Below, piece by piece: positions 6,074 to 63,883 of a stretch of DNA of 64,000 nt. Within the stretch, counting starts at the first letter, position 1. Each line of letters opens with the position of its first letter. Both the position numbers and the translations under genes were made by a program. The notes beneath the pieces are model-generated. The model saw nothing but the letters and a program-made list of their open reading frames with translations. It ran no database searches and was not told where the DNA came from. Source of the stretch: an uncultured bacterium. GTDB taxonomy: Bacteria; Fidelibacterota; UBA2242. The stretch is taken from NCBI GenBank assembly GCA_964605705.1, contig CAZSDW010000002.1, forward strand, positions 64,145 through 128,144, written 5' to 3'.

Positions 6074-6091
6074 CGATCCCCGATACCGTGA

Positions 6092-13019: not shown

Positions 13020-13041
13020 TTCAAAATATTTTTGAGGTTGC

Positions 13042-13935
13042 ATGCAGAGTGGAATGAGTGTTTTAGTGAAGTCCTATTTAGGACTTGTCCGTAGTTTCCG
13101 TCGGGGACGAGCCTTGACTCTGACAGATCAGCGGGAACGTCTGGAACATTTTGCACAGAATTTCAAAATTCCCGCGCTGGTTCAAATTGAACCGGTCAGG
13201 GTGGGTAAAATAGCTGCTGAGTGGATCATTCCACATGAAATCCGTCAAAGTGCAGTGGTTTACTACCTGCATGGCGGTGCATATTGTGCCGGCTCGCTGA
13301 ACACTCATCGGGCTTTTCTGGGTAACCTGGCACTGGTTTGTGGCTGCAAAGTATTGATTATTGACTATCGTCTGGCGCCGGAAAATCCCTTTCCGGCTGC
13401 ATTGGATGATGCCTATCAAGCTTATCGCTGGTTGATTGAACATCATTCCGCGCAGAAAATCATAGTAGCCGGTGACTCCGCCGGTGGTGGATTGACATTG
13501 GCATTAATGCTGAAACTCAGAGATGACTCTATTGATCTGCCGGCTGCCGGAGTATTGATGGCGCCCTGGGCGAACCTGACCTGCGACGATGAGAATTACC
13601 AGAAGGTTGGTAAAAAAGATGTGCTTCTTGATCAGGACCGTTTGAAACGGAATGCTCGAATGTATGCTGGGGATGAGGATTTGAAAAATCCACTGATCTC
13701 GCCAATATTTGCTAATCTGTCAAATTTACCACCGATTCTGATTCAGGTTGGTACCCATGACCTGTTGCTCGGTGATGCCAGGAGAATTGCCGCGAATATT
13801 GAAAAAAACGAAGGTAGTGTCGAGCTGAGTATCTGGGAAAAAATGATGCACGGCTGGCAGATTTTAGGAAACATGTTGCCGGAATCGCATAAAGCCATCT
13901 GGAAAATCAACCGCTTTATCGAGAAGAATACATAG
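13042..13935 (+). CDS. Alpha/beta hydrolase, hormone-sensitive-lipase-type esterase/lipase
   Basis: HGGG oxyanion motif (YLHGGAY), nucleophile elbow GDSAGG, C-terminal DxxxxH. Confidence 0.8.
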   Translation: MQSGMSVLVKSYLGLVRSFRRGRALTLTDQRERLEHFAQNFKIPALVQIEPVRVGKIAAEWIIPHEIRQSAVVYYLHGGAYCAGSLNTHRAFLGNLALVCGCKVLIIDYRLAPENPFPAALDDAYQAYRWLIEHHSAQKIIVAGDSAGGGLTLALMLKLRDDSIDLPAAGVLMAPWANLTCDDENYQKVGKKDVLLDQDRLKRNARMYAGDEDLKNPLISPIFANLSNLPPILIQVGTHDLLLGDARRIAANIEKNEGSVELSIWEKMMHGWQILGNMLPESHKAIWKINRFIEKNT

Positions 13936-13937
13936 TT

Positions 13938-14996
13938 TTGCGAAAATCACCTGTCCTTATATTATTGTTATTCTCAATCGCCTTGTCGGCAATGCCGAAG
14001 CTGGATTTCAATAAATTTTTCACTAAATCCAAATTTAATATTAATGACTTTATTGCCGATACATTGCTGGTGCCACTACCTTTGGACTCCATTGTCCTGA
14101 GTGGGAAAACCGGTGTAAAAACGATTGATGATCGGGCAATATCGGGGCGAATCCTGGACATTCAGCATAGTAAAAAATGGAAATACATACCGATTGACCA
14201 ATACATAATCATTCAGGATGATTTAGCAACGACAATGGGTAAGTATTTCGGGCGGGATTCTGTGCACTCCGCCGGTACGGTTTATATTAAAAATTTCTAT
14301 TTATGGTACGATGGCAAACCGGTGTTCAATAAAGGGCGAAAACTGAATGCCTATACAGTCCTTGAAGATTCAAGCGGTAATATTGTCAGCGACTGGATCT
14401 GGGAATTTACATTGAAGCCAAAAAAGAAACAGAAAAGCGAAGTGGTGATTGGTATTTTGATGGATCAATGGTTGACCAGGCAAGCGACGTCCCTGAAGGT
14501 CGAAAATTTTCACCGGAATGTCTATCCCTATCTATTCCGGCGGCAATTAATCAACTGGTGGGATTTTGTCCTTTTGCAGGATGGTTATATTCTGAATGGG
14601 CATTTGACGCTCGACTTTCCAGCTGACCAGGAAAAATCCTGGGTGCGCGGCTCAGCGGGAATTTTTTACCGAAAAGCGAAACACCACGAGTCAATTGCTG
14701 TTGGTGGTATGGACCAACAATGGTACAGCCGGATAAACCAGCAATTCATACGCCGGATGAATTTTACCTATCGCTTCGGTTTTAATAATTTCGACGCCGA
14801 TAAATATGCTCACCTCGATCCCTGGAACCTTTTCTTTGTAAATATCAGTGTAAACGCGGCAGTTGAATACCGTCCTGTTTATCTCAGGGGTTTATTTGCT
14901 GGAATCGGTCTGCATGGCTCGATCAATATTCTGCCGGATGTTATCAAGCGGATTGAGCCAGGTTTACTGATGACAATTGGGGTAATTCTGCCATGA
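13938..14996 (+). CDS. Hypothetical secreted protein (signal peptide), 352 aa
   Basis: N-terminal hydrophobic signal; no recognisable domain; translationally coupled (ATGA overlap) to the downstream TonB-dependent receptor. Confidence 0.5.
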   Translation: MRKSPVLILLLFSIALSAMPKLDFNKFFTKSKFNINDFIADTLLVPLPLDSIVLSGKTGVKTIDDRAISGRILDIQHSKKWKYIPIDQYIIIQDDLATTMGKYFGRDSVHSAGTVYIKNFYLWYDGKPVFNKGRKLNAYTVLEDSSGNIVSDWIWEFTLKPKKKQKSEVVIGILMDQWLTRQATSLKVENFHRNVYPYLFRRQLINWWDFVLLQDGYILNGHLTLDFPADQEKSWVRGSAGIFYRKAKHHESIAVGGMDQQWYSRINQQFIRRMNFTYRFGFNNFDADKYAHLDPWNLFFVNISVNAAVEYRPVYLRGLFAGIGLHGSINILPDVIKRIEPGLLMTIGVILP

Positions 14997-17314
14997 AGCG
15001 CATAATACATATATTGCTGCTAATGTTTTTGGCAAGTCCTCTGACAGCGGTGAATATATCGGGTTACGTGGTCGATCAGGAAACCGGCGAGACAATTATC
15101 GGTGTCAATGTCATGGTCGAGGGCAATGGACAGGGCGCGGCGACGGATGTTAAGGGATTTTTCATTATCCGTAATTTGGAAGAAGGTCAGCATAGCTTAC
15201 GATTTTCTCATATTGCCTATAAACCGTTAATCCAAACTTATACACTCTTTCGGAAGGACCTGCATCTCGGTGAAATTCCATTAGAGCCACAATCAATCCA
15301 GACTGAAGCGGTCGAAGTACTTGGACAGCGTGGCTCCATTATTCAGAAAGATATGGATATTGCCAGTTTTGAGATGGACCCGATTATCCTCACCGAGATA
15401 CCGCAGCTCGGCAAAGATGTTTTTCAGATGGTAAAACTGTCACCAAGCGTGACGGTTTCTGATCCATTTTCACCGCAATATTATGTGCGGGGCAGCGATC
15501 CCGGTGAAAATCTTGTCCAGTTGGATGGAATGACAATCTACAATCCGCAGCATTTTATGGGGTCAAATGCGATTTTCAATCCCTATGCCATCAAAAACAT
15601 TGAAATGCTGGTTGGTGGCTTCGATGCCGAGTACGGAGGACGAAATTCATCGATTTTAAATATCAGCTCAAGGGAAGGTCACCAGAGTGAAGTCCATGGA
15701 GAATTCAGACCGTCGATTTCGGGGCTTTCGGGAGCGCTGGAATTTCCTGCCGGACAAAATGCCACTGCGATGGTTTCCGGTAGAATGCTGACCGATGTGA
15801 GTTTTACAGTGATGATGGGATCACCAAATCTGATGGCGGATTTCAATGGCGCTTATCAGAAGAGCTTTCGTAAAACCAAACTGCGGTTATCAGCATTTTA
15901 TGCCCGGGATTATATGGATTACAGTATTGATGCCTTGATACTGTTTTTCCCCGAGACAATATTTGAGGATTTCAAAGAAGGATATATTGCCAATACAAGC
16001 AATAAGGCTTTGGGTGTTCAAAGCAGCACGGTCCTGACGCCGAACCTGCTCCTGGAATCACATCTCTACTATTCTGGCTCGGAGGTTGACAATAAAACCG
16101 CCTTTAGCTATTCCTTTAAGGATTCGACTTCCGAGACGGACTTTGCCATGGATTACAGGACCCGGATCGAAAATTCCATTAATGATGTTACCTTTAAATC
16201 GCATCTGTCGTGGTTTACATTCTGGAACCAAAGCCTGAAACTGGGAATAGAAATCAACCGCCTGCGGTTCATGAATCGGCTGGGCAGTTTTGATATTCAA
16301 TCTGAGAAGTCGATCTATTTCACGACATTTCAAGCCTTTTTCCTGCAGGATAAAATTGAATTTGGGAAATTGTTATTCAAAATCGGTGTTCGTAATTCGA
16401 GGGAGATTAATACAACTAAGTGGCGTCAGGAACCACGGATTTCAGCAACATTGAAGGTTTCAGACCTGACATTCAAATTGGCTTATGGTCACTATTATCA
16501 GTATTTGACGACATTGGATTCTAAAAACAATGAATTTGTTCAGTTCCTGGATTACTATAATCCACTTGTGGGACTGGACCCACTCTTTTCAATTCACCAT
16601 ATATTTGGGATTGAGGGTAAAATTACTGAACGTCTCGATTATTCTTTTACGGCATATTATAAAGATTTACGGACACTTTACCGGTCCAGTTATGAATCCG
16701 GCGGAATGGCGGTCAATCACCAAAGTCATTTTGAAAAAGGGAGCGGTGAATCCTACGGATTCGAACTCCTGTTTCGGGGTGAAATCGGGAAATTATCCGG
16801 ATGGGTAGGGTACACCTATACTCATGGTACCAGAAATTACCCAATGGTCCTGAATGGAAAAACCGTGCTCTTCGATGGCGACCAACCTCATAATTTCAAA
16901 TCTGTTCTGCTTTATAAACTTACTGAAGATATCACTGCCAGCTCGACACTGCAGTTCACCTCTGGTTTTCCGAGAACCTGGGAAACCGGTATGTTGATGC
17001 ACTATTATTATGATCCGTTGTGGAATGGTCTGGGTGCTGCGCCAACGAATATTACACCGGTTAAAAATAATGTCCGCTACCCGCCGCGACTGATCTGGGA
17101 CATCGGCTGGAAAAAGAAACTGCGGGATGGATTCGGTTACCATCTGGCTGAATATCTGGGCGCTGATGACGCCATTTTTGCAATGACAATACGTAACCTT
17201 CTGTTTCTGCACCGGGACCCGCAATATTACTTCTATTTCCCGAATTATGGTTATTATGGTTTTGATTTTCAATTTCTGCCCAGCATATCAGCAGGTTACA
17301 GTATCAGGTTTTAA
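14993..17314 (+). CDS. TonB-dependent receptor with N-terminal carboxypeptidase-regulatory-like domain
   Basis: Signal peptide, CarbopepD_reg-like region (ISGYVVDQETGETIIGVNV), plug motifs (VRGSDPGENLVQLDGMTIYNP) and a long beta-barrel ending in an aromatic residue. Confidence 0.8.
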   Translation: MKRIIHILLLMFLASPLTAVNISGYVVDQETGETIIGVNVMVEGNGQGAATDVKGFFIIRNLEEGQHSLRFSHIAYKPLIQTYTLFRKDLHLGEIPLEPQSIQTEAVEVLGQRGSIIQKDMDIASFEMDPIILTEIPQLGKDVFQMVKLSPSVTVSDPFSPQYYVRGSDPGENLVQLDGMTIYNPQHFMGSNAIFNPYAIKNIEMLVGGFDAEYGGRNSSILNISSREGHQSEVHGEFRPSISGLSGALEFPAGQNATAMVSGRMLTDVSFTVMMGSPNLMADFNGAYQKSFRKTKLRLSAFYARDYMDYSIDALILFFPETIFEDFKEGYIANTSNKALGVQSSTVLTPNLLLESHLYYSGSEVDNKTAFSYSFKDSTSETDFAMDYRTRIENSINDVTFKSHLSWFTFWNQSLKLGIEINRLRFMNRLGSFDIQSEKSIYFTTFQAFFLQDKIEFGKLLFKIGVRNSREINTTKWRQEPRISATLKVSDLTFKLAYGHYYQYLTTLDSKNNEFVQFLDYYNPLVGLDPLFSIHHIFGIEGKITERLDYSFTAYYKDLRTLYRSSYESGGMAVNHQSHFEKGSGESYGFELLFRGEIGKLSGWVGYTYTHGTRNYPMVLNGKTVLFDGDQPHNFKSVLLYKLTEDITASSTLQFTSGFPRTWETGMLMHYYYDPLWNGLGAAPTNITPVKNNVRYPPRLIWDIGWKKKLRDGFGYHLAEYLGADDAIFAMTIRNLLFLHRDPQYYFYFPNYGYYGFDFQFLPSISAGYSIRF

Positions 17315-17315
17315 G

Positions 17316-18095
17316 ATGATGAAGCAATTAAAAATACTATTTTTTATCCTGGCGGTTTGCCTGATAGGGATGAATACCTGTGATTTGCCGACTGATCCGG
17401 GACCGATGCCCAAAGATTTGATCGATACAAGATTTGAACCGGGACTGAATATTTTTGGTGTTTTGCGGGCGGACAGCGTCAGCGGCAGCTCCTTTATCCA
17501 TGTGGAGAAAGCGCTCCTGACAGAAGAGATGTATAGCGAATCGGATATATTTGATTCGACAGTTATTGTTCAGGTAACTGACACGCTGACCGGTGAAACG
17601 TTTGATTTTAATGCAATTGAGGATACAACGCATCGCGGATACTATTATAATGATGAATTTTATCCCGAGCCCGGACATTATTACACGATTGAAATCCAAT
17701 CGGACAGTTTGCCAACACTGACCGCCGGGACGACAGTTCCGATGCAGCCACAGATCACTTCAAGTACTCTTTCAATTGAAACTAACAAAGTATGCTTTGA
17801 TCTGCAGCTGACTGCGGATACTTATCAATATAACTTTTACCTGTTCGTGGGCGAAGATATCATTGAAAAACAGATTGCCAATGACAAATCCGGTACGACC
17901 ACAGTAAGCATTGATTTTCCCGAATCCGCAGGTTCCCCAACCGGATTGGTTATCATCGGATACGACCGGAACCTGACGGAGTATTTGAATTCCTCACCAG
18001 CTTTTATACCCCAAACCTTTCACGAAATGGTCAATACAGTTAAAAACGGCTACGGATGTTTTGGGTCGCTGGCGGTGATGACAATTGGATTATAG
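17316..18095 (+). CDS. DUF4249-like lipoprotein commonly paired with CarbopepD_reg TonB-dependent receptors
   Basis: Signal peptide plus lipobox-like NTCD, ~260 aa, position immediately after the receptor; the family call is from memory. Confidence 0.5.
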   Translation: MMKQLKILFFILAVCLIGMNTCDLPTDPGPMPKDLIDTRFEPGLNIFGVLRADSVSGSSFIHVEKALLTEEMYSESDIFDSTVIVQVTDTLTGETFDFNAIEDTTHRGYYYNDEFYPEPGHYYTIEIQSDSLPTLTAGTTVPMQPQITSSTLSIETNKVCFDLQLTADTYQYNFYLFVGEDIIEKQIANDKSGTTTVSIDFPESAGSPTGLVIIGYDRNLTEYLNSSPAFIPQTFHEMVNTVKNGYGCFGSLAVMTIGL

Positions 18096-18190: not shown

Positions 18191-18643
18191 TTATTTTCTT
18201 AATTTCAGTCTGTTGATTTCCTGCTGGATTTCGGGGATTACTTCCTGATTATGGATGACTTTTTTCCCGTCATGTTTGATTGAGAACAGGTAAAAAACTT
18301 TGCCACCAAATTCTTGGGTGAATTTTTTGTGGGTTTCTTTTTGAAATCCTTTTTCTTTGTAGATTTGGGAAATATGTGTGACTCCACTGACCGGTTTGAT
18401 TTGTAATCCAATGTACTTGTCGAAGATTTTTATAAAGAAATCAACGTTGTACAATCGATCCCAGTTGTCCGGCGCCGGTTCGATTTTAACTTCGAGTAAT
18501 TTTTGTAATTGTCCGTATATTGTATTTATTTCAGTAGTATAGCCGTCAAATGTTCGATCAATAACTAACTGGTATATGTAATTGATGCAATCATCTTCGG
18601 TGATGTTTTCCACTTCAGCAGCGATGACTTCTGTAATTTTCAC
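18191..18643 (-). CDS. Hypothetical 150-aa protein, candidate cognate restriction endonuclease or specificity partner of the adjacent methyltransferase (GTG start)
   Basis: Co-directional and 180 bp downstream of the MTase in an AT-rich island. A possible degenerate PD-...QxK arrangement (NVD...LQIK) is only suggestive. Confidence 0.35.
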   Translation of the reverse strand: MKITEVIAAEVENITEDDCINYIYQLVIDRTFDGYTTEINTIYGQLQKLLEVKIEPAPDNWDRLYNVDFFIKIFDKYIGLQIKPVSGVTHISQIYKEKGFQKETHKKFTQEFGGKVFYLFSIKHDGKKVIHNQEVIPEIQQEINRLKLRK

Positions 18644-18822
18644 ATAGAGTTTGCGTCCGAGTTCTTCGATATGGTCACGTGTTCTGACGTTTTTAAATTA
18701 TATGTTCGCCATGTATCAATATCTCTTTGGGAGAACATTTTCGGATTTCTTCGGAAACGGCGCCGACATTCCGCTTAAAATTCAATTGAAAGCGGTTCAT
18801 TGCCGAGTTAAGGATCCATTCT

Positions 18823-20124
18823 TTAGCCATGAGCTGCTCGCAGATAGTCATGAAATTTGTTCATATATTTGTAATCATAGTGGTCGTCCACATCCGTCAG
18901 ACCATTTTTTAACAAGTGGGCGTTGATAAAGGTTTTATTTTTCAGATAAAGGTAACAAAGTAAATTATTTTCTTCGTCGTGTTTTATTTTGTCGAATTTT
19001 AAAAATACTTTCTGACCATTTAATTTTTCTTTAAGATAATTGACTGCCTTACCGTTTTGTGATTTATCTTCTTTTATACCAAGTAATCGGACGGTTAATC
19101 CATTATTTAATAATATTTTTTCAGGAGAAATAACCTCTTTTACGGTATAATAATCTTCCCGTTCATGGTTACTATTCGTGTCAATCCGTGAACCGAAATT
19201 CAATTTTTTAGGATCAATTTTTTTATCCAGATCATGGGGGTCTTTAAAAATGTAGGTAAGTTTTTGAATTTCTTTTTTGAAGTCGATTTTAAGATTAGAC
19301 TGTTCGAGAAAATCAAAGCTTGTTCCGAATATATCAGACTGATCCATATTTAATTTTTTCCTGATAATTGGAATAAACTCTTTGTTTATTTCATATCCAA
19401 TTGAACTTCTTCCGGTATTTAATGCTGCCAGGGAAGTAGTCCCACTACCCAGAAAAGGATCGAGGACGATATCGCCGACAAAGGAAAACATTCTCAATAA
19501 GCGCCGTGGTAATTCCTCAGGAAACATTGCTATATGTCCATCTTGTTTCGCACCTCCGAAATTCCAGTGTCCTGAAAAGTAGTTATTCCATTCCTCCTTG
19601 GTTAATCTGGATAATTCCTTATTTTCACGGCTTGGTTTTTTGGATGTTCCCAATTTTTTAAAAATTAGAATAAATTCATAATCAATTTTTAGGATTCCAT
19701 TCCTTGGAAAGGGGAAGCTGCCCATTATTGTCGCTCCGCCGCTTGTGTTGGTAGTAGTCACTTTTTGCCAGATAATAGCTCCCATATAGTCGAATCCAAT
19801 ACTTTCACAGAATTTTATAATTTCGGTTCTGATTGGAATGACTTTGTATCTACCATAGTAAATCGACCTTGCGAATTGGTCTCCAATATTGATGCAGAGT
19901 CGGCAACCATTATCTAAAACACGATAACATTCTTTCCATACAAGGTTTAAATTATTTATATAATTTTCGTAAGTATCGTTGTAACCTATTTGTCGTTTAG
20001 TACCATAGTCCTTTAATTGCCAATACGGAGGAGAAGTAATTACTAAATGTACTGATTTTTCGGGCAATTCTGCCATTTGTCGGCTATCGCCGTTGATTAT
20101 TTTATGATGGGTTTTCACGTTCAA
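18823..20124 (-). CDS. Beta-class DNA methyltransferase (N4-cytosine/N6-adenine type) fused to a C-terminal staphylococcal-nuclease-like OB-fold domain
   Basis: SPPY (motif IV) precedes DPFLGSGTT (motif I), the beta-class order. C-terminal ~100 aa (TVRLLGIKEDKS...VFLKFDK...LLCYLYLKNKTFINAHLLKNGL) mirrors the SNase fold pattern but lacks the DTPE/Arg catalytic residues. Confidence 0.8.
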   Translation of the reverse strand: MNVKTHHKIINGDSRQMAELPEKSVHLVITSPPYWQLKDYGTKRQIGYNDTYENYINNLNLVWKECYRVLDNGCRLCINIGDQFARSIYYGRYKVIPIRTEIIKFCESIGFDYMGAIIWQKVTTTNTSGGATIMGSFPFPRNGILKIDYEFILIFKKLGTSKKPSRENKELSRLTKEEWNNYFSGHWNFGGAKQDGHIAMFPEELPRRLLRMFSFVGDIVLDPFLGSGTTSLAALNTGRSSIGYEINKEFIPIIRKKLNMDQSDIFGTSFDFLEQSNLKIDFKKEIQKLTYIFKDPHDLDKKIDPKKLNFGSRIDTNSNHEREDYYTVKEVISPEKILLNNGLTVRLLGIKEDKSQNGKAVNYLKEKLNGQKVFLKFDKIKHDEENNLLCYLYLKNKTFINAHLLKNGLTDVDDHYDYKYMNKFHDYLRAAHG

Positions 20125-23654: not shown

Positions 23655-23687
23655 TAATAAGCTCGATTCGGTTTCAGTTATATTTTG

Positions 23688-24863
23688 ATGAAGAAGATTT
23701 TCCCGTATTTTGGAGTACTTGTATTTTTTCTGTCCGGTTGCGCCCCGACCATTAAAGAATTTCGTTACAATGAAAATATTCATGCCTATGAGGCGACGAC
23801 CCAAAAGAAATCAGTATCCTCCAAAAACTGGTTTGTTCTCCGGCAGGGCACGGATCGGAAAAAGGTGGATAATTATGAAATTGCCGAAGCGCTGGTTGGC
23901 AATTATAATGGATCTTTTTTTCGGGATATTATAAATATCAGCCTGCACGGCAACCAGTTGCCGCCGATTGCCAAACCTTATTTATCCGGGAAAATATATT
24001 TCAAGGCAATTGATTTGTATAAACAGCGAAATTATCCCGCTGCGCTCCATGAATTCAGAAAAGCATTATGGTCCTATAATGATCTGAATTATATCTCCGA
24101 TGTCAATTACCTGATGGGATTATGTTCGAAAAATTCGGGAGATTTGGAATCGGCGGAATTTTACTTTCAGCAGTTTATGGATTATTCAGAAAGCATCTGC
24201 CCTAAAACCTTCAATCTTGATTATCAAAATAGCCAGAACTTTGATACGCTGCTTATAAAGGCAGAAATCCCGGAGGATCACTTTTCCTGTCACTACGATC
24301 GACCGGCTTTATACCAGCATTATTTTCCCGGTTATATCAGCCCTTATGGAAATCGAATAAATATTGGATTGCGGATTGGCTATATTTATCCGGGAAAAAC
24401 TGTCGGACTGATTGAACTGCGTAGTATTTTATGGAAAGACCTGCAGTACCGATTCGGGATGGGTAATATTTATCAATACTTGCGAGTTGACTATCAATTT
24501 TATAAAAATTCCGATAATACGGTTGGCATTTTACCATTTGTCGAATTTTCATCACAAGACGTCACTTTTGATGATGGTAATAAAATTGTCTTTTATCAGG
24601 TCAATCCGGGGATCGAGATCGGATACTTTCCGTACCCTCGTCTGGGATTATACGGCGGCGCCCGTTATTATCGCTGGAACGAGGAGAACAAATATTCCGA
24701 ATTGAACGAAAGTGGTTCGTATCAGGTGTGGAATAATAATGAACTGTTTGCCGGCGCGGGTATTTTCCTCCTGGACCATTTCGGGCTGCTTATTGAACTG
24801 ACCCATCGGGGTGATATTCACATGGGAATTTATATGAGTGGGGGACAGTTCTGGTTTCGATAA
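23688..24863 (+). CDS. Lipoprotein with TPR-like helical repeats followed by a predicted beta-barrel-like region
   Basis: Lipobox LSGC; TPR-like Y/A/L periodicity in residues ~90-170. Confidence 0.45.
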   Translation: MKKIFPYFGVLVFFLSGCAPTIKEFRYNENIHAYEATTQKKSVSSKNWFVLRQGTDRKKVDNYEIAEALVGNYNGSFFRDIINISLHGNQLPPIAKPYLSGKIYFKAIDLYKQRNYPAALHEFRKALWSYNDLNYISDVNYLMGLCSKNSGDLESAEFYFQQFMDYSESICPKTFNLDYQNSQNFDTLLIKAEIPEDHFSCHYDRPALYQHYFPGYISPYGNRINIGLRIGYIYPGKTVGLIELRSILWKDLQYRFGMGNIYQYLRVDYQFYKNSDNTVGILPFVEFSSQDVTFDDGNKIVFYQVNPGIEIGYFPYPRLGLYGGARYYRWNEENKYSELNESGSYQVWNNNELFAGAGIFLLDHFGLLIELTHRGDIHMGIYMSGGQFWFR

Positions 24864-34479: not shown

Positions 34480-35115
34480 ATGAAAATTCGAATAATAAGC
34501 TCATCAATGATTGTATCTGTGTTACTAAGTGTCATGACATTTGCACAGCTTGACTTTGGTGGTGATATCGTCAGCCGATATGTCTGGCGTGGAACAGATT
34601 TCGGTAATGCGGTTTCGGTACAGCCCTATTTGTCAGTTGCTATCGGTGGTATGGAGATGGGCGCCTGGGCATCCTACCCGGTTTGTGCAACTGTTGGAGC
34701 AAATGAAAATGATCTTTACATTTCATATGTTTTTGGAAATTTCGGAGTCATGATTAATGACTATTATTTCCCGGAAGGATTGGACCTTTTTAATTTCGCG
34801 GATGACGGCGCACATATTCTGGAAGGAATGTTATCGGTAGAATTCGGTGCTATTTCTGTCATGGGTGCAATGAATTTCCGGGGTGATACCGATAATTCCA
34901 TGTATGCCGAAGCCGGGTACGGTATTTGTGAAAAAGATGACATTAGTGTCTCGGCGTTCGCCGGTTTAGGTAATGGATTGTATGTGACTGATGGTGGATT
35001 TAATTTTGTCAACCTGGGAATATCTGCTTCGAAAGGTGCTTTTTCAATTGCATTTATTGTGAATCCGGAAGCGGAGACGGATTTTCTGGTTCTCGGATAT
35101 AATTTATCTTTTTAA
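34480..35115 (+). CDS. Small outer-membrane beta-barrel protein (hypothetical porin-like)
   Basis: Signal peptide, alternating hydrophobic strands, C-terminal ...GYNLSF ending in Phe. Confidence 0.45.
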   Translation: MKIRIISSSMIVSVLLSVMTFAQLDFGGDIVSRYVWRGTDFGNAVSVQPYLSVAIGGMEMGAWASYPVCATVGANENDLYISYVFGNFGVMINDYYFPEGLDLFNFADDGAHILEGMLSVEFGAISVMGAMNFRGDTDNSMYAEAGYGICEKDDISVSAFAGLGNGLYVTDGGFNFVNLGISASKGAFSIAFIVNPEAETDFLVLGYNLSF

Positions 35116-49527: not shown

Positions 49528-49546
49528 GATTAGGCGAATATAATTA

Positions 49547-49708
49547 ATCCTGCAATGGCAGTACGTTCTTAGAACCGTGTTTCGCACGGTGGGCACCTCT
49601 CGAACGATTCAAGTTTCCCCGACTAGGAGGCATGCTTTCCACGCCCGAAGTCCAGCTCCCATATTTACAGTGTTGGTTCTAAAAATATAGGATATGCCAT
49701 TGCAGGAT
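49547..49708. ncRNA. Structured ncRNA candidate with 6S-RNA-like architecture (strand undetermined). The alternative reading is a MITE-like element with 14-bp terminal inverted repeats.
   Basis: Termini ATCCTGCAATGGCA/TGCCATTGCAGGAT pair perfectly; a second stem pairs TTAGAACC with GGTTCTAA; internal local hairpins; lies in the gap between convergent yigZ and mazG. Confidence 0.35.
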
Positions 49709-49802
49709 AAATTTCAAAAACCTTACAATTCAATATAAACCTTAGGATACTATTGTTCAAGGCTTATTTTAAAAGTGTGATTTGGATTAAGTATCAGTGA
49801 TA

Positions 49803-56192: not shown

Positions 56193-56247
56193 TAAAAAAA
56201 TAGCTGAAGTTGGTCGATAAGCCGAATTCTGTACCCCGCCGCAGCGG

Positions 56248-56582
56248 GATGGCAGTCATTTATCTATCCACGACTTTACAGCCGGGATTAAGCGATCTAC
56301 CCGAGAACTTAACGGAACGGGCGATTCCAATTCTCTGCTTGATCTTGCTCCAGGTGGGGTTTACCCGGCTCCCGGTCTCGCGACCCGGACGGTGCGCTCT
56401 TACTTTAATCCCGCTTAATTGCAGGACGCACCATTTCACCCTTGACCACCGAAGGTGGACGGTATCGTTTCTGTGGCACTTTCCTTCTTCCGAATAATCG
56501 GAAGACTCCGTGTTACGGAGCACCCTGCCCTGCGGAGTTCGGACTTTCCTCCCCGATAAGGATCGGGGCGACTGCCTGACCA
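56248..56582 (-). ncRNA. rnpB: RNase P RNA (bacterial type A)
   Basis: Reverse complement contains GGAGGAAAGTCCG-AACTCCGCAGGGCAGGGTGCTCC, CACAGAAA, AGGGTGAAATGGTG, GTAAGAGCGCACC and GGTAAACCCCACCTGGAGCAAG blocks; P1 pairs GGCAGTC with GACTGCC. Confidence 0.9.
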
Positions 56583-56585
56583 ACT

Positions 56586-57386
56586 TCAGATTAATTCCTC
56601 CTCAATATCGGATCGAATTTCACTGGCGTCTGAATCCCAGTAAAGCAGACGACCGCAAAATTCACAACGGTTTAAAGAAGATCCAGATCGAATTTCAACA
56701 ATTTTTTGCGGGGGTACAATTTTATGACAACCTCCGCAAGAAACCTGAGCGGGAATATATTCAATATTTCCCTTTTTATCTAATTTTTCATCAAATATCT
56801 GATTAATCGGGACGATGGCAACACCGTCTTTCGCTCTGCTGATCCGATCATATTCACGGATATAACGCAGTGAAATCAACTTATGGACCTTTTCGCGTTC
56901 TGCTAATAATTTATTTTGGACGGCGTTGGTTTGCTGATTGGTTTTTTCCAGCTGTTCCCGGCGGGTTTTAATGTCACTTGATTTATCGATAAGAGTCAGG
57001 TCTTTACTTTTAATAGATTCTTTCAAACTTTCAAGTTCTTCGTTTAATTCAAGAATCTTATATTCCGCGGCATCAATTTTCTGGCGAACCGAGTCGATCT
57101 CTGTCGTCAAAGCATCATATTCTTTATTGGAGGTGACCAGGTATAATTGATCCTGATATCGTTTTAGATGTTCTTTATTATCTTCAATATCGGCTTGGAG
57201 ATTCTTTTCCTGGAGAACGATTTCCTTTTCACGATTCCGGTCTCTTTCCAGCTCTTTCTCGAGAGTATCAATATTTTTCTTTAAAGTATTCACGACCTGA
57301 GGCAAATCACCCTTCATCTGATTGATCTCAAGCAGCTTGTTATCAATTTTCTGTAGCTTTACCAGATATTCTAACTCTTTGAGCAT
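56586..57386 (-). CDS. Coiled-coil protein with C-terminal C4 zinc ribbon (COG1579-like); start placed at ATG 57386 after SD GGAGG
   Basis: Long heptad-repeat region and C-terminal CGGCH...CEFCGRLL; the longer ORF-track start would read through a terminator hairpin. Confidence 0.65.
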   Translation of the reverse strand: MLKELEYLVKLQKIDNKLLEINQMKGDLPQVVNTLKKNIDTLEKELERDRNREKEIVLQEKNLQADIEDNKEHLKRYQDQLYLVTSNKEYDALTTEIDSVRQKIDAAEYKILELNEELESLKESIKSKDLTLIDKSSDIKTRREQLEKTNQQTNAVQNKLLAEREKVHKLISLRYIREYDRISRAKDGVAIVPINQIFDEKLDKKGNIEYIPAQVSCGGCHKIVPPQKIVEIRSGSSLNRCEFCGRLLYWDSDASEIRSDIEEELI

Positions 57387-57669: not shown

Positions 57670-59067
57670 TTATCGTCGGAAAAATGTCTTAAGAATATTT
57701 GGAGTATAGATAATTAATGAGATAAATAATCCTAAAAAGAATGGTTGAATATTAAAGGGATATTCAGGTGTTGTCAGATTGCCCCGGGTAATTCCGATAA
57801 TTAACCAGATTGCGGTTCCTCCAAAAGTTGATATCATTGAAGTAACCGTCGCGTGTTTTGATGCCTTCAATTTTTGAAAAAATACTGAAACAAGTGGAAG
57901 CAGAAGACTTGGAATAATCAATGATCCCATAAAATACCAGATTTTGACAACCGATGGCACCAGCGACAGGAGGATAACAGAAAAGACCAATGTCAATCCC
58001 AAACCGACCTGGGTGGCGATGGTCACATCAGTATTTTTCCTGATGCGCCAGACAATATCTCTGCCGAAGCTGACCGCAGCCAGGAAGGAATTTGAATCAA
58101 GCGTGGACATGATTGTTGCTAGTAAAGCGATAAAAAATAATCCGCTGAGGATAGGTGGGAGAATCTGTTCGCCCAGGAGCGGGAATGCCATTAAACCGGG
58201 GATGTCTTTGAAAATTGCGCGGGCATATAATCCGGCAGTTGTGGTAAAAAAATCAAATGTAATCCAGAAGCCCACTGAAATAATGATTCCGTTACGGGCT
58301 GTTTTAGGAGTCTTAGCCGCATAACAGCGTTGGTAAAATCCCGGATCGACAAAAGTCCACAGCGCTATGAAAAACCAGACAAAAATGTATTGAAAATTCT
58401 GACCGCCGCTCAATTGCAGGTGTGCCCGGGGTAGGTTCTCTCTCAGAAAAGTGATTCCGCCGAACCGGCTGACCAGGGTAACAACCAGAATGGCGAATCC
58501 GATGAACATCAGGATAAACTGAACGATGTCGGTTTTAACGACCGAATTAAATCCACCGAAAAAGACATACACTGTCGAGAAGATTATTCCGACTAATACA
58601 CCGATCCAGAGCTGAATACTGAAAATCGAGCTGAGTATTATGCTGATCATCAAAAGATAGGAGGCAGGGGAGACCAGTAAAAAAATTAAAATACTGCCAA
58701 TCAATCCTGCGGTTCGACCGAAATTATTATACAGTTGATCGGGAATAGTAAAGAGGTTTGTTCTGCGAATTTTCGGGGCAACAAAAACAGCAAACAGGAT
58801 GGCGAAGAGATAATAGGGCAATGCCTGAGTCACCCAATTCAGTAATCCATAACGATACGTGAATTCCCCGATACCCAGAATGCCACCATACCAGGTTGAC
58901 ACCAGTGTTGCTGTGAATGCGGGTAGGGATAATTTTCGCCCTGCTAAAAGAAAATTTTCAGGATTATCACGCTGCTGCCGGGAAGACCGCAATCCGATGA
59001 TTAGAATTGCTGCCAGGTAGATCAGGATCAGGAGTTTATCAATTGGCGCGAGGTGTACAGGATTCAT
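57670..59067 (-). CDS. Sodium:solute symporter family transporter
   Basis: 465 aa, 13-TM SSF topology pattern. Confidence 0.7.
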   Translation of the reverse strand: MNPVHLAPIDKLLILIYLAAILIIGLRSSRQQRDNPENFLLAGRKLSLPAFTATLVSTWYGGILGIGEFTYRYGLLNWVTQALPYYLFAILFAVFVAPKIRRTNLFTIPDQLYNNFGRTAGLIGSILIFLLVSPASYLLMISIILSSIFSIQLWIGVLVGIIFSTVYVFFGGFNSVVKTDIVQFILMFIGFAILVVTLVSRFGGITFLRENLPRAHLQLSGGQNFQYIFVWFFIALWTFVDPGFYQRCYAAKTPKTARNGIIISVGFWITFDFFTTTAGLYARAIFKDIPGLMAFPLLGEQILPPILSGLFFIALLATIMSTLDSNSFLAAVSFGRDIVWRIRKNTDVTIATQVGLGLTLVFSVILLSLVPSVVKIWYFMGSLIIPSLLLPLVSVFFQKLKASKHATVTSMISTFGGTAIWLIIGITRGNLTTPEYPFNIQPFFLGLFISLIIYTPNILKTFFRR

Positions 59068-59732
59068 AGAGAACGAAGCGGTGTAATTAAGATCAGCTGC
59101 CCTTTATCAAATGAAAGTTCGACAGTATCGGTTGTAGTACTGTTACTCACCCCGCGCGAACCCTCCGATAGGTCTTCCTGATCCAGATTCCATTTTAATC
59201 CCTGAGTCCGAACATTATACGCCACAGGCAAACCAAACAGTGAAACAGAGTAATTTTTTTTGAAACCGATCGAATACGATCCGGGCGGTAAAAGAATATA
59301 TTCAGAATTTATTGAGTATATCTGAATGGTCATAATCCGGCTGAATTTTTGGGCGATCTGTAAAGTAGCAAAACTTTGATCGTCCCGGTCGCCCAGAAAT
59401 CCAAGTAATAAAATATTTCGATAAACGGTCTCCTGGAAAATGTAGTTAAATCCCTTTTCAAGATCATTTTCCTGTTGAGAATCAACGGATCTGATCATGA
59501 CTCCATTGGCTGAGAAGAACTTGTGGGAATCTTTACGGATGGAATCAAGATCACCAATGATCAGATGCGGGGTGATCTGATGATCGTATGCATAATTTGC
59601 TCCACCGTCGGTACAGATAATGAATTCGGCTTTCGCTAGAATTTTGTCACATAAGTCTTTCCGGGGAAATTCAGCATTTCCCATCAGAACACAATAGGGA
59701 TTTTCAGGAACCTGATATATCGGGTTGATCAT
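59064..59732 (-). CDS. Thiamine pyrophosphokinase
   Basis: LIIGDLDS motif and ~220-aa size. Confidence 0.7.
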   Translation of the reverse strand: MINPIYQVPENPYCVLMGNAEFPRKDLCDKILAKAEFIICTDGGANYAYDHQITPHLIIGDLDSIRKDSHKFFSANGVMIRSVDSQQENDLEKGFNYIFQETVYRNILLLGFLGDRDDQSFATLQIAQKFSRIMTIQIYSINSEYILLPPGSYSIGFKKNYSVSLFGLPVAYNVRTQGLKWNLDQEDLSEGSRGVSNSTTTDTVELSFDKGQLILITPLRSL

Positions 59733-59752: not shown

Positions 59753-60673
59753 TTAAAATAGTTTCTCGTACAAGGGGATATTGTTTTTTTGGGTACATTT
59801 CAAAAATTTACTAATATCGATAATGAAATTGAATTGGCGCATTTCATCGATGACAGCCTTCTGGTACTCTTTGGAATTGAAATATTTCAGAAGATATTTT
59901 TCGAGAGGCAGGATGAGATACTCGGTGTCCCAGACCAGTGTTGTTCCTTTGACATGATTGATAATACAGTCAAAATGAGCTGCCCAGGCGACGGTGTGGA
60001 ATTTATATTTTGACAGAAGATCGCGATTAATTGATTGCAGAATCGCATGGTTGCGGGGATTGGTGAAGATAAAATCCTTGGTAAACATGAACGCCGTATG
60101 ATAATAGCGCGGTTTATTGATCATACCCTCCAGGTGAAGCCGACGGGTCAGCAGAATTAAAATCTGGAGCATACGCTCGCCTATTCCTAATCCGGGGTAA
60201 AGTTGTCCGGGTAATTGCGGTCGCCTTTCATCGAAAGTCATTTTCGGATTCTGAAGTAACAGCCATTCCACCTGAAGTAAATTGGGATTGCGGTGCGGAA
60301 ATTGGGGAAGTGAACTCTGTGGAAATGTAACCGGTCCCTTTTTTAGCACCATTTCACAAATTTTATGATCGTCGGATTCTTTTCCGGTATAAACAAACAT
60401 CCGATGAGCATGGGGATCACTGGTGTCAATCTCGACCAGTAAATCTGTTAGACCCACTCTTGCCAAAGCTTCGGTAAGCCCAAATGCATCGATGACGTTC
60501 TTGAGTCCCTGCTTCGAGAAGATGCCCATAAAGAATGAAGAACTCTGAGCCACCCTGCCATCCGTAAAAATATCATCCATGCTCAGATCTTCAGAATTGC
60601 CACCCGCCTGCAAATCGGATAAAGTCATCTTGCGAGCAATTTTTACATACTGTTTACGGTATCGGCTTTTCAT
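59753..60673 (-). CDS. Hypothetical protein, 306 aa, no recognisable family
   Basis: Intact ORF with coding-like composition; downstream of and co-directional with the NifS-SelD fusion. Confidence 0.5.
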   Translation of the reverse strand: MKSRYRKQYVKIARKMTLSDLQAGGNSEDLSMDDIFTDGRVAQSSSFFMGIFSKQGLKNVIDAFGLTEALARVGLTDLLVEIDTSDPHAHRMFVYTGKESDDHKICEMVLKKGPVTFPQSSLPQFPHRNPNLLQVEWLLLQNPKMTFDERRPQLPGQLYPGLGIGERMLQILILLTRRLHLEGMINKPRYYHTAFMFTKDFIFTNPRNHAILQSINRDLLSKYKFHTVAWAAHFDCIINHVKGTTLVWDTEYLILPLEKYLLKYFNSKEYQKAVIDEMRQFNFIIDISKFLKCTQKNNIPLYEKLF

Positions 60674-60713: not shown

Positions 60714-62918
60714 TTAACGATCAATAAAAATCTTGCTCCGATCTGATTCTTCGAAAGTTCCAATCCGACTCGCCGGGTGTATCCCGGATTGCTCTAATTC
60801 CCTGATAATATTATCCGCATTTGATTCCGGTACTGCCACAAGCAGACCACCCGAAGTCTGGGCATCGGATAATATGATTCGTAAATAGTTTGTGACTTTA
60901 TCATCCCAGATGACCCTACCTTCCAGGAATTCCATATTTGCATCAGTCCCGCCGGGAATGACATTACGGCGAACCATTGCGATGGTATCCGGAATGATCG
61001 GAACCTGGGAACTATTTACTCTCGCTGATATGCCGCCGGCTCCCAGCATTTCCGACAGGTGTCCCAGTAAGCCAAAGCCGGTTACATCGGTGCAGGCATG
61101 AACAGAATAGTTTTTGAGAATGCCAGCCGCTTTTGCGTTCAAGGTGGACATGATGCGAATGATTAATTCTTTGGTTTTATCGCTTAAGAGTCCGCGCTTC
61201 AATGCCGTTGATAAAATACCCAGTCCGATCGGCTTGGTTAAAATAAGGGCATCTCCCGCTTGTGCGCCGGTATTGCGCCAGATTTTATCGGGATGAACGA
61301 TTCCGGTTACAGACAGACCGAATTTGGGTTCATTATCCTCGATAGTATGTCCGCCAAGAATCGGAATTCCGGCTTCCCGGGCGACCTGCCAGGCACCTTC
61401 CAGAATCCGTTCCAGCACCTTCATGGGAAGTCGTTTTTCCGGAAAAGCGGCGACGTTCAATGCAAATAGCGGTTTCGCGCCCATAGCATAAATATCACTG
61501 AGTGAATTCGCGGCTGCAATGCGTCCGAAATCAAAGGGATCATCGACAATCGGTGTAAAAAAATCGACTGTTGCCACCAGGGAAATTTCATCATTCAGAC
61601 GAAATACGGCGGCGTCATCGGAAGTTTCAAAACCTACCTGGGTAAACTCCGATGGAATCACACTGAATTTTTTCAGGATTTCTTCCAGGTTCTGTGGACG
61701 AATTTTACAGGCACAGCCCAAACCGTGTGTATATTGGGTCAGGCGGATATCCGATATATTGCTGATTGTTACTTCCGTTAACATATTTTCATTCAGGTGA
61801 AGGTAGGTGTCCGTAATCTTGCGGACTGCGATGTTGACCTCCTCCAGACTGGTTGTTCTCCCGATGGAAAACCGAACACTGCCCAGAATCCGGTCGTTGC
61901 TGAATCCCATTGCATGCAAAACGTGAGATGGTTCCGTGCCGTCCGCGTGGCATGCCGCACCGGCTGATGCGGCAATATCGGGCAAATCCGATAAGAGAGT
62001 GTTCGTATCGATACCGGGGAAATAGACATTGACTGTGTTTGGAAGTCGCTTACTAAGATGACCATTCAACTGGATTTGCGGAAGTGCTTTTTTCAGCTTA
62101 TTCCAGAAAAGTGCACCGGTCTTGGTCAATTCCTGAACGATGCTTTGTTCGTTTGATGAAAAGAGTTCGGCAGCGGCTCCCAGCCCGACAATTTCGAGGA
62201 CATTTTCAGTCCCGGGGCGCAATCCATGCTCGTGACCGGCGCCATGGATTAAAGGAATGAGTTTTGTCCCGGTTTTCACATACAAAGCGCCAATACCTTT
62301 GGGAGCGTTCATTTTATGTCCGGCGACAGAGAGCAGATCAACCCCCAGATCCCGGACATCGACATGTATTTTGCCAACCGCCTGAGCGGCGTCGGTATGG
62401 ATTAGAATTCCATTTTTGGTGGCAATTTGGCTGATTTCTTTAATTGGCTGGATCGTCCCGACTTCATTATTTGCCAGCATAATACTGATCAGGATAGTAT
62501 CCGATCGCAAGGCTTTTTGAATATCGTCGGGATTTACCATGCCGCATTCATCAACCGGGAGATACGTGACCGAAAAACCTTTTTTCTGCAGGTAGCGACA
62601 GACCTCCAGGACGGCGGGATGTTCGACTGTGCTGGTGACTATGTGCCCGGTACCATGTAAATCTGCAATCCCTTTGATTGCCAGATTATTCGATTCACTG
62701 CCACCGCTGGTAAAGATCAGTTCTTCGGCTTTACAATTGAGCAGTGTTGCCAGTTGATCCCGGGCAGTTTCAATTGCATTTTTGGCTGCCTGTCCGTAGG
62801 TGTGGCTGCTGGATGGATTGCCATAATGATTCTTTAAATAAGGTGTCATGGCACTGATGACTTCCGGCAACAGTGGTGTGCTGGCATTATGGTCCAAATA
62901 AATCGGTTTGTCAGGCAT
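60714..62918 (-). CDS. Fusion protein: N-terminal NifS/IscS-like cysteine desulfurase (PLP) plus C-terminal selenide, water dikinase (SelD, Cys form)
   Basis: N-terminal half: SVAGHKM PLP-Lys and SAGAACH active Cys. C-terminal half: LTQYTHGLGCACKI (SelD N-terminal Cys/Sec loop), AIR-synthase-like fold with TDVTGFGLLGHL. Confidence 0.85.
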   Translation of the reverse strand: MPDKPIYLDHNASTPLLPEVISAMTPYLKNHYGNPSSSHTYGQAAKNAIETARDQLATLLNCKAEELIFTSGGSESNNLAIKGIADLHGTGHIVTSTVEHPAVLEVCRYLQKKGFSVTYLPVDECGMVNPDDIQKALRSDTILISIMLANNEVGTIQPIKEISQIATKNGILIHTDAAQAVGKIHVDVRDLGVDLLSVAGHKMNAPKGIGALYVKTGTKLIPLIHGAGHEHGLRPGTENVLEIVGLGAAAELFSSNEQSIVQELTKTGALFWNKLKKALPQIQLNGHLSKRLPNTVNVYFPGIDTNTLLSDLPDIAASAGAACHADGTEPSHVLHAMGFSNDRILGSVRFSIGRTTSLEEVNIAVRKITDTYLHLNENMLTEVTISNISDIRLTQYTHGLGCACKIRPQNLEEILKKFSVIPSEFTQVGFETSDDAAVFRLNDEISLVATVDFFTPIVDDPFDFGRIAAANSLSDIYAMGAKPLFALNVAAFPEKRLPMKVLERILEGAWQVAREAGIPILGGHTIEDNEPKFGLSVTGIVHPDKIWRNTGAQAGDALILTKPIGLGILSTALKRGLLSDKTKELIIRIMSTLNAKAAGILKNYSVHACTDVTGFGLLGHLSEMLGAGGISARVNSSQVPIIPDTIAMVRRNVIPGGTDANMEFLEGRVIWDDKVTNYLRIILSDAQTSGGLLVAVPESNADNIIRELEQSGIHPASRIGTFEESDRSKIFIDR

Positions 62919-62929
62919 AATAATGAGAG

Positions 62930-63883
62930 TTATTTGGTTTCAATGAGTAAACTGTAATCGGCGCTTTTAACTGAATGGGTCAACGCGCCGACCGAAATGA
63001 CATCCACACCGCTTTCAGCATAGGTTCTGATTGTCTCGAGCGAAATATTGCCGGAAGCTTCAAAAAGAATGTGGCTGTAGAGTTTTTTCTTTTTGGCTTC
63101 GGCAACCAATTGGGTGATTTCATTCGGTTCAAAGTGATCGAACATGATGACAAAGGGAAAAGGTGCGGTAATGTTATCCAGGTAACCGAGCATTTCCCGG
63201 TATTCATCCGGATTTGTCACTTCAATTTCAATAAATCGTAAATAGGGGTAGGCTGCAATTATTTCCGTAACCGCATTTTTCAGGCTGTCCGGATTGTTCG
63301 ATTCCCGCAAAATCGCCAGGTGGTTTTCCTTTAACATCGCAGCATCATGCAATCCGAGCCGGTGTGTCAAACCGCCGCCGCACTGAATTGCCCGTTTGTC
63401 CAGTAAGCCCCAGAGTGTTTTCCGGGTGCCAACAACAAAAGAGTGTAATCCGGCAATTTTTTCAACATATTCGCAGGTGGTCGTGGCAATTCCGCTGAGC
63501 CGCTGCAGGACATTGAGGATCGTTCGCTCCAGCGATAAAATCTGAGCAGCCGGACCCTCGATTTTCAGAAGTATTTCGCCATTATTGATTTTTTCACCAT
63601 TTTTAAAAACAGTGGTAGTGGTCAATCCGCGCCGCGTACTGAAAAATATTGTTTCATCCAATCCCCCGATTATAGTCGGGGATTTTGCGACAATTTTTGC
63701 ATAGAGGTTTTTGTGATAGGATTGGAGCGGTGTCAGGGATACATCACCACTGTCGATGTCCTCATCCGCCAGATGAGAGAAGGTACTGTAAACGGTATCC
63801 TGATAGGAAGAGCGATTCAGATCCAGATCTTCAACAGCATCAAAGGCATTTCTGATTACGATATTTCTGTCAAGCTGTTTCAT
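62930..63883 (-). CDS. nadC: Nicotinate-nucleotide pyrophosphorylase (quinolinate phosphoribosyltransferase)
   Basis: GTRKTLWGLLDKRAIQCGGGLTHRLGLHDAAMLKENH block. Confidence 0.85.
   Translation of the reverse strand: MKQLDRNIVIRNAFDAVEDLDLNRSSYQDTVYSTFSHLADEDIDSGDVSLTPLQSYHKNLYAKIVAKSPTIIGGLDETIFFSTRRGLTTTTVFKNGEKINNGEILLKIEGPAAQILSLERTILNVLQRLSGIATTTCEYVEKIAGLHSFVVGTRKTLWGLLDKRAIQCGGGLTHRLGLHDAAMLKENHLAILRESNNPDSLKNAVTEIIAAYPYLRFIEIEVTNPDEYREMLGYLDNITAPFPFVIMFDHFEPNEITQLVAEAKKKKLYSHILFEASGNISLETIRTYAESGVDVISVGALTHSVKSADYSLLIETK

Follow-up and report, generated by a model that had tools for sequence, protein, structure and literature searches.

Fusion proteins that join a NifS-like protein to selenophosphate synthetase (SelD) were described by Zhang et al. 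in 2008, who reported them from Geobacter sp. FRC-32 alone, with no example in the Global Ocean Sampling (GOS) data (PMC2398784). Mariotti et al. in 2015 listed two prokaryotic cases together with Naegleria gruberi and Acanthamoeba castellanii, and described SelD fusions as being all N-terminal extensions; the fused SelDs were predicted to keep selenophosphate synthesis, with the NifS-like part delivering selenium (PMC4561486). The genomes carrying the published fusions were also reported to hold selenoproteins or other selenocysteine (Sec) machinery (PMC2398784, PMC4561486), and a 2022 review contained nothing further on the NifS-SelD fusion. Here we describe a gene of this type in a stretch of 64,000 nucleotides, hereafter called the window, from an uncultured bacterium of the Fidelibacterota (Marinimicrobia), lineage UBA2242 (assembly GCA_964605705.1, contig CAZSDW010000002.1, positions 64,145 to 128,144 of the forward strand). 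As such fusions were reported in 2008 and 2015, the kind is already known, and the fusion of the window is a tidy, largely ordinary example of it.

The fusion gene is complete and occupies positions 60714..62918 on the minus strand, where it forms one uninterrupted, ATG-started open reading frame (ORF) of 734 codons with zero internal stops, closed by a TAA/TAG-type stop at 60714-60716. It is probably a functional chromosomal gene of the Marinimicrobia/Fidelibacterota, whose product would be a two-enzyme polypeptide making selenophosphate from organically bound selenium by means of a specialised desulfurase paralogue. The translated sequence was assigned to two domains on the basis of Pfam and NCBIfam. 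The N-terminal domain (aa 1-378; 61785..62918, minus strand, as are all parts of the gene) is a group-I NifS/IscS-type pyridoxal phosphate (PLP) domain, recognised by the Aminotran_5 family, its NFS1/IscS relatives and Foldseek, and the C-terminal domain (aa 392-734; 60717..61745) is SelD (selenide, water dikinase). Between them lies a linker of 13 residues, MLTEVTISNISDI (aa 379-391; 61746..61784). In the Pfam analysis, Aminotran_5 (PF00266, class-V aminotransferase) covered aa 6-362 with an E-value of 1.3e-78, while the SelD half was matched by AIRS (PF00586) at aa 434-541 and AIRS_C (PF02769) at aa 553-732. The bounds of the linker were set by the NFS1 alignment, which stops at aa ~369-378, and by the E. 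coli SelD alignment, which starts at aa 389; the cysteine loop of SelD starts 24-27 residues past the end of the desulfurase domain. Among the solved-structure matches no chain covered both domains. The original prediction, made from the sequence alone, of a complete NifS-like PLP enzyme placed N-terminal to a Cys-type SelD was right in its domain sizes and motifs, and all of the motifs that it quoted were found: AGHK (with Lys202), SAGAAC (Cys323) and THGLGCACKI (Cys402/Cys404/Lys405).

The distribution of the fusion was analysed in two datasets. A large protein collection (NCBI, JGI, ENA and Logan assemblies), from which all counts are lower bounds, contained at least 120 clusters of 729-776 aa with 96-100% query cover and 54-100% identity to the fusion, and the named sources were Marinimicrobia/Neomarinimicrobiota, KSB1, Zixibacteria and Calditrichaeota. 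The second dataset consisted of 80 loci, one genome per species, with the window's own genome not among the representatives. A full-length fusion was present in 68 of them, mostly from Neomarinimicrobiota/Fidelibacterota (62-75% identity) and Bacteroidota (49-56%). The NifS-SelD fusion is widespread, being found in Fidelibacterota, Bacteroidota, KSB1, Zixibacteria and Calditrichota, and in view of these numbers the description of such fusions as rare, with which the gene had been introduced, is outdated. Clustering at 50% identity gave about a dozen fusion representatives, followed by single-domain NifS proteins. Three longer relatives of the fusion, P0170 (819 aa), P0174 (919 aa) and P0176 (814 aa), carry approximately 80-190 extra residues.

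The alignment of 69 full-length fusions showed 122 invariant positions, a correlation between the identities of the two halves (r = 0.895, 2,346 pairs) and a junction segment of 22-23 residues in 64 of the 69 sequences. Because the identities of the halves correlate, the junction length is fixed and so many columns are invariant, a single ancient origin under constraint is indicated; the fusion family is compact, old and conserved. The same data bear on the explanation that the fusion is an artefact, produced by a frameshift, by read-through between neighbouring genes or by chimeric assembly at ~61750, which corresponds to the linker. No sign of this was seen. The same continuous architecture recurs in the clusters from NCBI, JGI, ENA and Logan and in the species representatives, the GC content is even along the fusion gene (0.47-0.50), and a protein 100% identical to the fusion (P0001) is recorded on a 147-kb contig. 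As the junction is kept in independent assemblies and the composition is even, a frameshift or chimera is effectively excluded, and an artefact of any kind is extremely improbable.

The C-terminal half scored above the curated equivalog cutoffs of both SelD profiles, with 392.6 bits against a cutoff of 125 for TIGR00476 (aa 392-700) and 380 bits against 299 for NF002098. The E. coli SelD structure 3u0o was matched with an E-value of 1.3e-83 across its residues 4-317. The segment IRLTQYTHGLGCACKIRPQNLE aligns gap-free to the N-terminal loop of E. coli SelD (HGLGCACK vs HGAGCGCK), and on this ground Cys402, Cys404 and Lys405 of the glycine-rich loop His398-Gly-Leu-Gly-Cys402-Ala-Cys404-Lys405 (61704..61727) correspond to E. 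coli Cys17, Cys19 and Lys20, Cys402 being aligned with Cys17, the Sec/Cys site. The blocks DDAAV, TVDFF, AAANSLSDIYAMG and TDVTGFGLLGH are identical or near-identical to those of E. coli SelD, with the shared patterns DDAAV, TxDFF, AAxNxxSDIxAMG and TDVTGFGLLGH. Across 75 fusions, G399-K405 is invariant, and so are Asp435, Asp452, Asn471, Asp475 and Asp611, which we take to be the ATP/metal site of SelD. All catalytic residues of the SelD half are intact, and selenophosphate synthesis is predicted for it by homology.

The closest solved relatives of the PLP domain are NFS1 (E 7e-97) and IscS (3e-91), followed by selenocysteine lyase (2e-73). The Foldseek comparison gave target-normalised TM-scores (TMt) of 0.91-0.92 to NFS1/IscS and 0.88 to selenocysteine lyase, and the values of 0.91-0.94 to NifS/IscS structures place the domain among the fold-type I PLP enzymes. 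The blocks aligned with NFS1 include HTDAAQAVGKI, the GHK motif within Ala199-Gly-His-Lys202 (62313..62324), in which Lys202 is the PLP Schiff-base lysine, and the mobile catalytic loop Gly320-Ala-Ala-Cys323-His324 (61947..61961), which carries the persulfide/perselenide cysteine. Lys202, Cys323, A199, G200, H201 and G320-H324 are invariant across the 75 fusions. None of the curated families in question accepts the domain, as it reached 445.7 bits for NifS TIGR03402 (cutoff 530.75), 385.5 bits for IscS TIGR02006 (cutoff 643.2), 390.9 bits for IscS NF010611 (cutoff 548) and 129.9 bits for the bacterial selenocysteine lyase SclA NF040779 (cutoff 525); it resembles DndA too, also under the cutoff of that family in NCBIfam.

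A regular desulfurase operon was found in a related Fidelibacterota genome (L009), where genes of an Rrf2 regulator, NifS and NifU lie ~5 kb upstream of the fusion (L009 3639-5656). The stand-alone NifS of this operon passes the TIGR03402 cutoff with 577.8 bits and carries His/Ser/Ser at the positions discussed below, with the loop GSACS, while the NifU scaffold (207.9 bits, cutoff 187.9) partners this other NifS paralogue and not the fusion. In the window, Pfam detected no NifU/IscU scaffold gene among the non-nested ORFs of at least 120 aa. Considering the sub-cutoff scores and the separate Rrf2-NifS-NifU operon, the fused domain is presumably a distinct, specialised paralogue rather than the housekeeping Fe-S (iron–sulfur) desulfurase. 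If synteny holds, an operon of the L009 type would lie just past the right-hand end of the window.

Collins et al. described three positions that part the Sec-specific human selenocysteine lyase (hSCL) from non-specific enzymes, namely D146, V256 and H389; other group-I enzymes have Lys in place of D146, Ser/Thr in place of V256 and Thr/Ala in place of H389, and the D146K substitution in hSCL was necessary and sufficient to gain cysteine desulfurase activity, Asp at this position being reported as what Sec specificity requires and as enough to confer it (PMC3266270). The hSCL motifs obtained by translating published primers, SVEH-D, TI-V-GHK and GAAC-H-S, have as their counterparts in the fusion TVEH-P101, SV-A199-GHK and GAAC-H324-A, the first of them being part of Glu99-His100-Pro101 (62616..62624), placed also by the NFS1 alignment. 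The catalytic loop GAACH is identical to that of hSCL, while IscS and NFS1 have GSACT. His324 stands at the position of His389, and Ala199, at the position of Val256, provides the non-Ser residue three positions before the PLP lysine; Asp146 is replaced by Pro101, which is neither the Asp of mammalian selenocysteine lyase (SCLY) nor the Lys of IscS/NFS1. Pro101 is at least 90% conserved in the 75 fusions, the Pro101/Ala199/His324 set is present in 72 of 72 fusion genes of the fetched loci, and the pattern EHP...CH was found in 126 of 130 fusion-length proteins. This suggests a preference of the fused domain for selenocysteine, which we consider a reasonable reading of the alignment.

The structure was modelled with AlphaFold2 (AF2) from 75 sequences and reached a mean predicted local distance difference test (pLDDT) value of 87.6 and a predicted TM-score (pTM) of 0.58. 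The only segments with a pLDDT below 50 were residues 321-328, which belong to the Cys323 loop, and 380-385 in the linker, and residues 380-420, the Cys402 loop included, averaged 53-69. Both cysteine loops and the linker are presumably mobile elements on a short tether.

The mechanism that we propose consists of four steps. By homology, the PLP domain would take the chalcogen from L-selenocysteine, with cysteine as a possible second substrate, leaving a perselenide on Cys323 of the mobile loop. The architecture of the protein suggests that selenium may then go directly from Cys323 to Cys402 of the flexible SelD loop, and because this loop begins ~25 residues past the desulfurase domain, free selenide would never be released. 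The SelD domain, in which the catalytic residues are present, would use ATP to form selenophosphate, as is predicted from its homologues. Finally, selenophosphate may feed MnmH for the synthesis of tRNA 2-selenouridine and/or SelA for the synthesis of Sec-tRNA; this step is seen only for relatives, and for the organism of the window we infer it. NifS-SelD fusions have been read likewise in the literature, as a coupling of selenium delivery to SelD (PMC4561486, PMC2398784).

To describe the gene neighbourhoods, all ORFs of the 80 loci and of the last 20 kb of the window were clustered, which corresponds to ~20 kb per genome. The linkage to mnmH, the gene of tRNA 2-selenouridine synthase, was counted in the 41 non-Marinimicrobia loci whose flanks extend for at least 1.1 kb in each direction. 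In 23 of these 41 loci mnmH lies near the fusion on the same strand, and in 18 of the 23 it is the immediate upstream neighbour, at a distance of -8 to 439 bp; the identity of the linked mnmH was confirmed by NF008750 (374.5 bits, cutoff 241). In the Bacteroidota relatives, the fusion is placed directly downstream of mnmH. In Paenibacillus qinlingensis (L077), selD, mnmH and a nifS-like gene are separate members of a single operon, and the NifS-like protein carries the Pro/Ala/His signature and scored 432.8 bits against the NifS TIGR03402 cutoff of 530.75. Three Bacteroidota loci have one to three tandem tRNA-Lys(UUU) genes directly upstream of the fusion (L021 8641-8968, L023 9277-9554 and L024 9172-9245), which may be a coincidence; tRNA-Lys(UUU) is among the E. 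coli tRNAs that carry 2-selenouridine. In one KSB1 locus (L085), hypA and a ParA/CbiA-type (HypB-like) gene follow the fusion (12482-13639), and several Fe-S and nitrogenase-cofactor-like genes precede it, which hints at a link to hydrogenase maturation.

Several observations weigh against the proposed function. In none of the 24 Marinimicrobia loci was a selenophosphate consumer detected at up to 10 kb from the fusion, nor was one detected in the window. Likewise, the genes next to the fusion in Zixibacteria, KSB1 and Calditrichota are unrelated to selenium. As for the active site, the key residue of hSCL is Asp, yet the fusion has Pro; the position varies among NifS-type enzymes, and in L009 the bona fide NifS carries His there instead of Lys. 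The pattern EHP...CH also occurs in 35 single-domain representatives, and two stand-alone NifS-like proteins, P0180 and P0181, carry the Pro/Ala/His signature without selD nearby. Because of the Pro in place of Asp, the variability of the position and these unlinked bearers, the signature is only suggestive, and not diagnostic, of selenocysteine preference. The AF2 model, a monomer model of domains expected to form dimers, defines no contact between the two domains (pTM 0.58), which are themselves confident with their mutual orientation undefined, and a direct hand-over of selenium is for this reason an architectural argument only. In general, all steps of the mechanism are predictions from homology or architecture. 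The idea that the signature is exclusive to selD-linked genes was rejected, as the two informative stand-alone cases are unlinked, the contig of a third case being too short for a verdict.

The window itself was searched for selenium-related genes by several methods. Pfam found no SelA, SelB, MnmH/YbbB, YqeB or YqeC among all of its non-nested ORFs of at least 120 aa, tblastn with MnmH gave zero matches against the 64 kb, the tRNAs in the window are tRNA-Gly and tRNA-Val only, with no tRNA-Sec, and no credible in-frame UGA gene was found in it. The statement of the original prediction that no selA, selB, tRNA-Sec or ybbB lies in the window was upheld by these searches. The negative results for tRNA-Sec are meaningful, since ARAGORN did find a tRNA-Sec beside an unfused selD in a Bacillota metagenome-assembled genome (MAG; L080, 3924-4020 vs selD at 5558-6589, ~1.5 kb apart), the only one in any fetched locus. 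The conclusion of the original prediction that the fusion implies a selenium-utilisation trait in the organism was reasonable, but it was not borne out by the window or by the 24 syntenic Marinimicrobia loci.

These results also allow a different function of the NifS-like domain to be weighed, namely that it acts as an ordinary cysteine desulfurase and provides sulfur, for example for the 2-thiouridine that MnmH turns into 2-selenouridine or for Fe-S clusters, and that it was fused to SelD through a shared tRNA pathway or co-regulation. The overall similarity of the domain, which is closest to NFS1/IscS (E 1e-96 to 1e-90) and only then to selenocysteine lyase, is in line with this explanation, the linkage to mnmH would suit a shared pathway of the tRNA wobble uridine, and the stand-alone genes with the same active-site signature point in the same direction. 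However, neither mnmA nor an Fe-S scaffold gene was found beside the fusion in any neighbour cluster examined, and L009 has its separate, regular Rrf2-NifS-NifU operon. Moreover, the acceptor loop of SelD follows right after the desulfurase in every member of the family, an arrangement with no rationale if sulfur were delivered to other proteins, and the Lys and Ser of IscS/NFS1 are replaced in a domain whose loop is lyase-like. We therefore regard supply of sulfur as unlikely and selenium delivery to SelD as the better description of the fused domain.

The absence of selenium genes near the Marinimicrobia fusions is also relevant to the so-called orphan SelD. Peng et al. in 2016 listed three SAR406 (Marinimicrobia) and two KSB1 single-cell genomes among the organisms with an orphan SelD, and pointed out that a gene resembling cysteine desulfurases lies close to orphan selD genes (PMC5029168); apart from this table, literature searches found nothing on the selenium traits of Marinimicrobia. 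In such a case, the fusion would make selenophosphate, or a sulfur analogue of it (thiophosphate, for example), for an as yet undescribed pathway other than selenocysteine, 2-selenouridine or the Se-molybdenum cofactor. Both parts of that publication and the lack of a known selenium gene near the fusion in the 24 loci and in the window speak for this possibility. However, single-cell genomes are incomplete, so that gene absence in them is weak evidence, and our own analysis covered ~20 kb per genome. In Bacteroidota and Bacillales, members of this protein family share operons with mnmH, KSB1 MAGs with selA and selB have been reported (PMC9012183), and the scores of the SelD domain lie above the curated equivalog cutoffs. 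An orphan function is thus somewhat less likely still than the supply of sulfur. A stronger version, in which the fusion clade would be a group-I lyase of bacteria that prefers selenocysteine and is permanently joined to SelD, and in Marinimicrobia would feed a selenophosphate- or thiophosphate-dependent pathway distinct from the four known ones (Sec, 2-selenouridine, the Se-molybdenum cofactor and selenoneine), must be considered improbable, because of the incompleteness of the orphan-SelD genomes and the ties of the family to mnmH in other lineages. Provision of selenophosphate for a known type of consumer remains the reading that we prefer.

The fusion gene lies 11 bp downstream of nadC (62930..63883, minus strand; TIGR00078, 226 bits) and is followed after 40 bp by an ORF of 306 aa without a Pfam or NCBIfam match (59753..60673, minus strand). 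Further along the same strand are the genes of thiamine pyrophosphokinase (TPK; 59064-59732) and an SSF symporter (57670-59067), and then tRNA-Val. The order nadC - fusion - 306-aa gene - TPK - SSF - tRNA-Val is kept in 19-23 Marinimicrobia loci. Together with the best matches, this gene order places the organism of the window in the Fidelibacterota (Marinimicrobia, SAR406). Scans for sigma-70 promoters and terminators around the fusion gene gave counts not above those of shuffled controls, the promoters of the Fibrobacterota–Chlorobiota–Bacteroidota (FCB) group being outside the models of the scan, and the hint of a transcription unit is limited to the tight spacing on either side, 11 bp from nadC and 40 bp from the 306-aa ORF.

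The 306-aa gene was considered as a new selenium partner and rejected, as its distant members keep TPK and SSF in loci where the fusion is absent. Its family comprises 45 clusters only, nearly all from Marinimicrobia/Fidelibacterota, and the gene is always directly upstream of TPK and the SSF symporter, even at 31-34% identity (L082, L083). The protein may be a component of thiamine salvage or uptake.

Two structural RNA genes were identified in the window, both on the minus strand: 6S RNA (49543-49711; 61.3 bits) and class A RNase P RNA (56202-56587; 251.4 bits). They lie within 7 kb of each other and, as ordinary housekeeping RNAs, confirm the chromosomal context. Of the remaining non-nested ORFs (at least 120 aa), some are unannotated and the rest are housekeeping genes, including efp, accBC, gcvHP, mutL, miaA, rpsB-tsf-pyrH-frr, class II ribonucleotide reductase, der, recJ, fabH and ybeY. 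An apparent restriction-modification pair is located at 18191-20124 on the minus strand; its endonuclease is an MjaI-type homologue of 150 aa that matches only positions 59-159 of the 164 of the profile, and its methylase is an N6/N4 DNA methylase with a C-terminal staphylococcal-nuclease domain. Five ORFs of 211-392 aa on the plus strand (12093-13019, 13938-14996, 17247-18095, 23685-24863 and 34480-35115) have no Pfam match at E <= 1e-5.

The conceptual gain from these results is little, as NifS-SelD fusions and the presumed hand-over of selenium have been in the literature since 2008. In much of the FCB group, SelD normally occurs as this fusion; NCBI names the protein simply 'SelD', so the finding has a bearing on annotation. 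The NifS-like clade that includes the fused desulfurase has a lyase-like GAACH loop and lacks the Lys and Ser of IscS, which makes this desulfurase a testable candidate for a selenium-adapted group-I enzyme of bacteria. The frequent operon linkage to mnmH points to tRNA 2-selenouridine as a main consumer of selenophosphate. For the Marinimicrobia, which are abundant in the dark ocean, no consumer of selenophosphate was seen near the fusion.

The fused domain shares with IscS, NFS1 and NifS the fold, ~40% identity, the PLP lysine, HTDAAQAVGK and the catalytic cysteine loop. It differs from IscS and NFS1, which have Lys/Ser/Thr where the fused domain has Pro/Ala/His, and in having no neighbouring scaffold gene; the ~25-residue C-terminal tail of IscS/NFS1 is missing because the chain continues into SelD. 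With mammalian SCLY (3gzc, 3a9x) it has in common the fold (TMt 0.88), ~40% identity, GAACH and the non-Ser residue before GHK, whereas Asp146 of SCLY is Pro in the fused domain, whose overall sequence is nearer to IscS. SCLY has been proposed to pass selenium directly to selenophosphate synthetase (PMC3266270). The SelDs of E. coli (3u0o) and Aquifex aeolicus (2yye/2zod) match the SelD half with E-values of 1.3e-83 and 3.6e-68, respectively, and share with it an identical HG-G-C-x-C-K loop as well as the conserved Asp/Asn residues; these are, however, stand-alone enzymes that obtain selenium from separate proteins or as free selenide, while in the fusion the acceptor loop is covalently tethered to the predicted donor enzyme.

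The selD-mnmH-nifS-like operon of Paenibacillus would comprise the same three activities, and its NifS-like protein shares the signature and the sub-cutoff NifS score with the fused domain. In the selD-mnmH pairs of the 2-selenouridine trait mnmH is adjacent, whereas it is absent near the fusion in the window and in all Marinimicrobia loci, where the fusion is placed between nadC and a thiamine-related gene group. The published fusions, compared here by their published descriptions, have the same order of a NifS-like (COG1104/PF00266) N-terminal and a SelD C-terminal part and the same proposed role in selenium delivery. Their SelD is of the Cys type, like that of the window, except in Geobacter, which has Sec in the loop (reported as CxxU) in place of the Cys-Ala-Cys-Lys found here. 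The FCB-group clade was not described in the 2008 and 2015 accounts, in which the fusions were treated as isolated cases, whereas the fusion of the window belongs to a large and conserved clade of that group.

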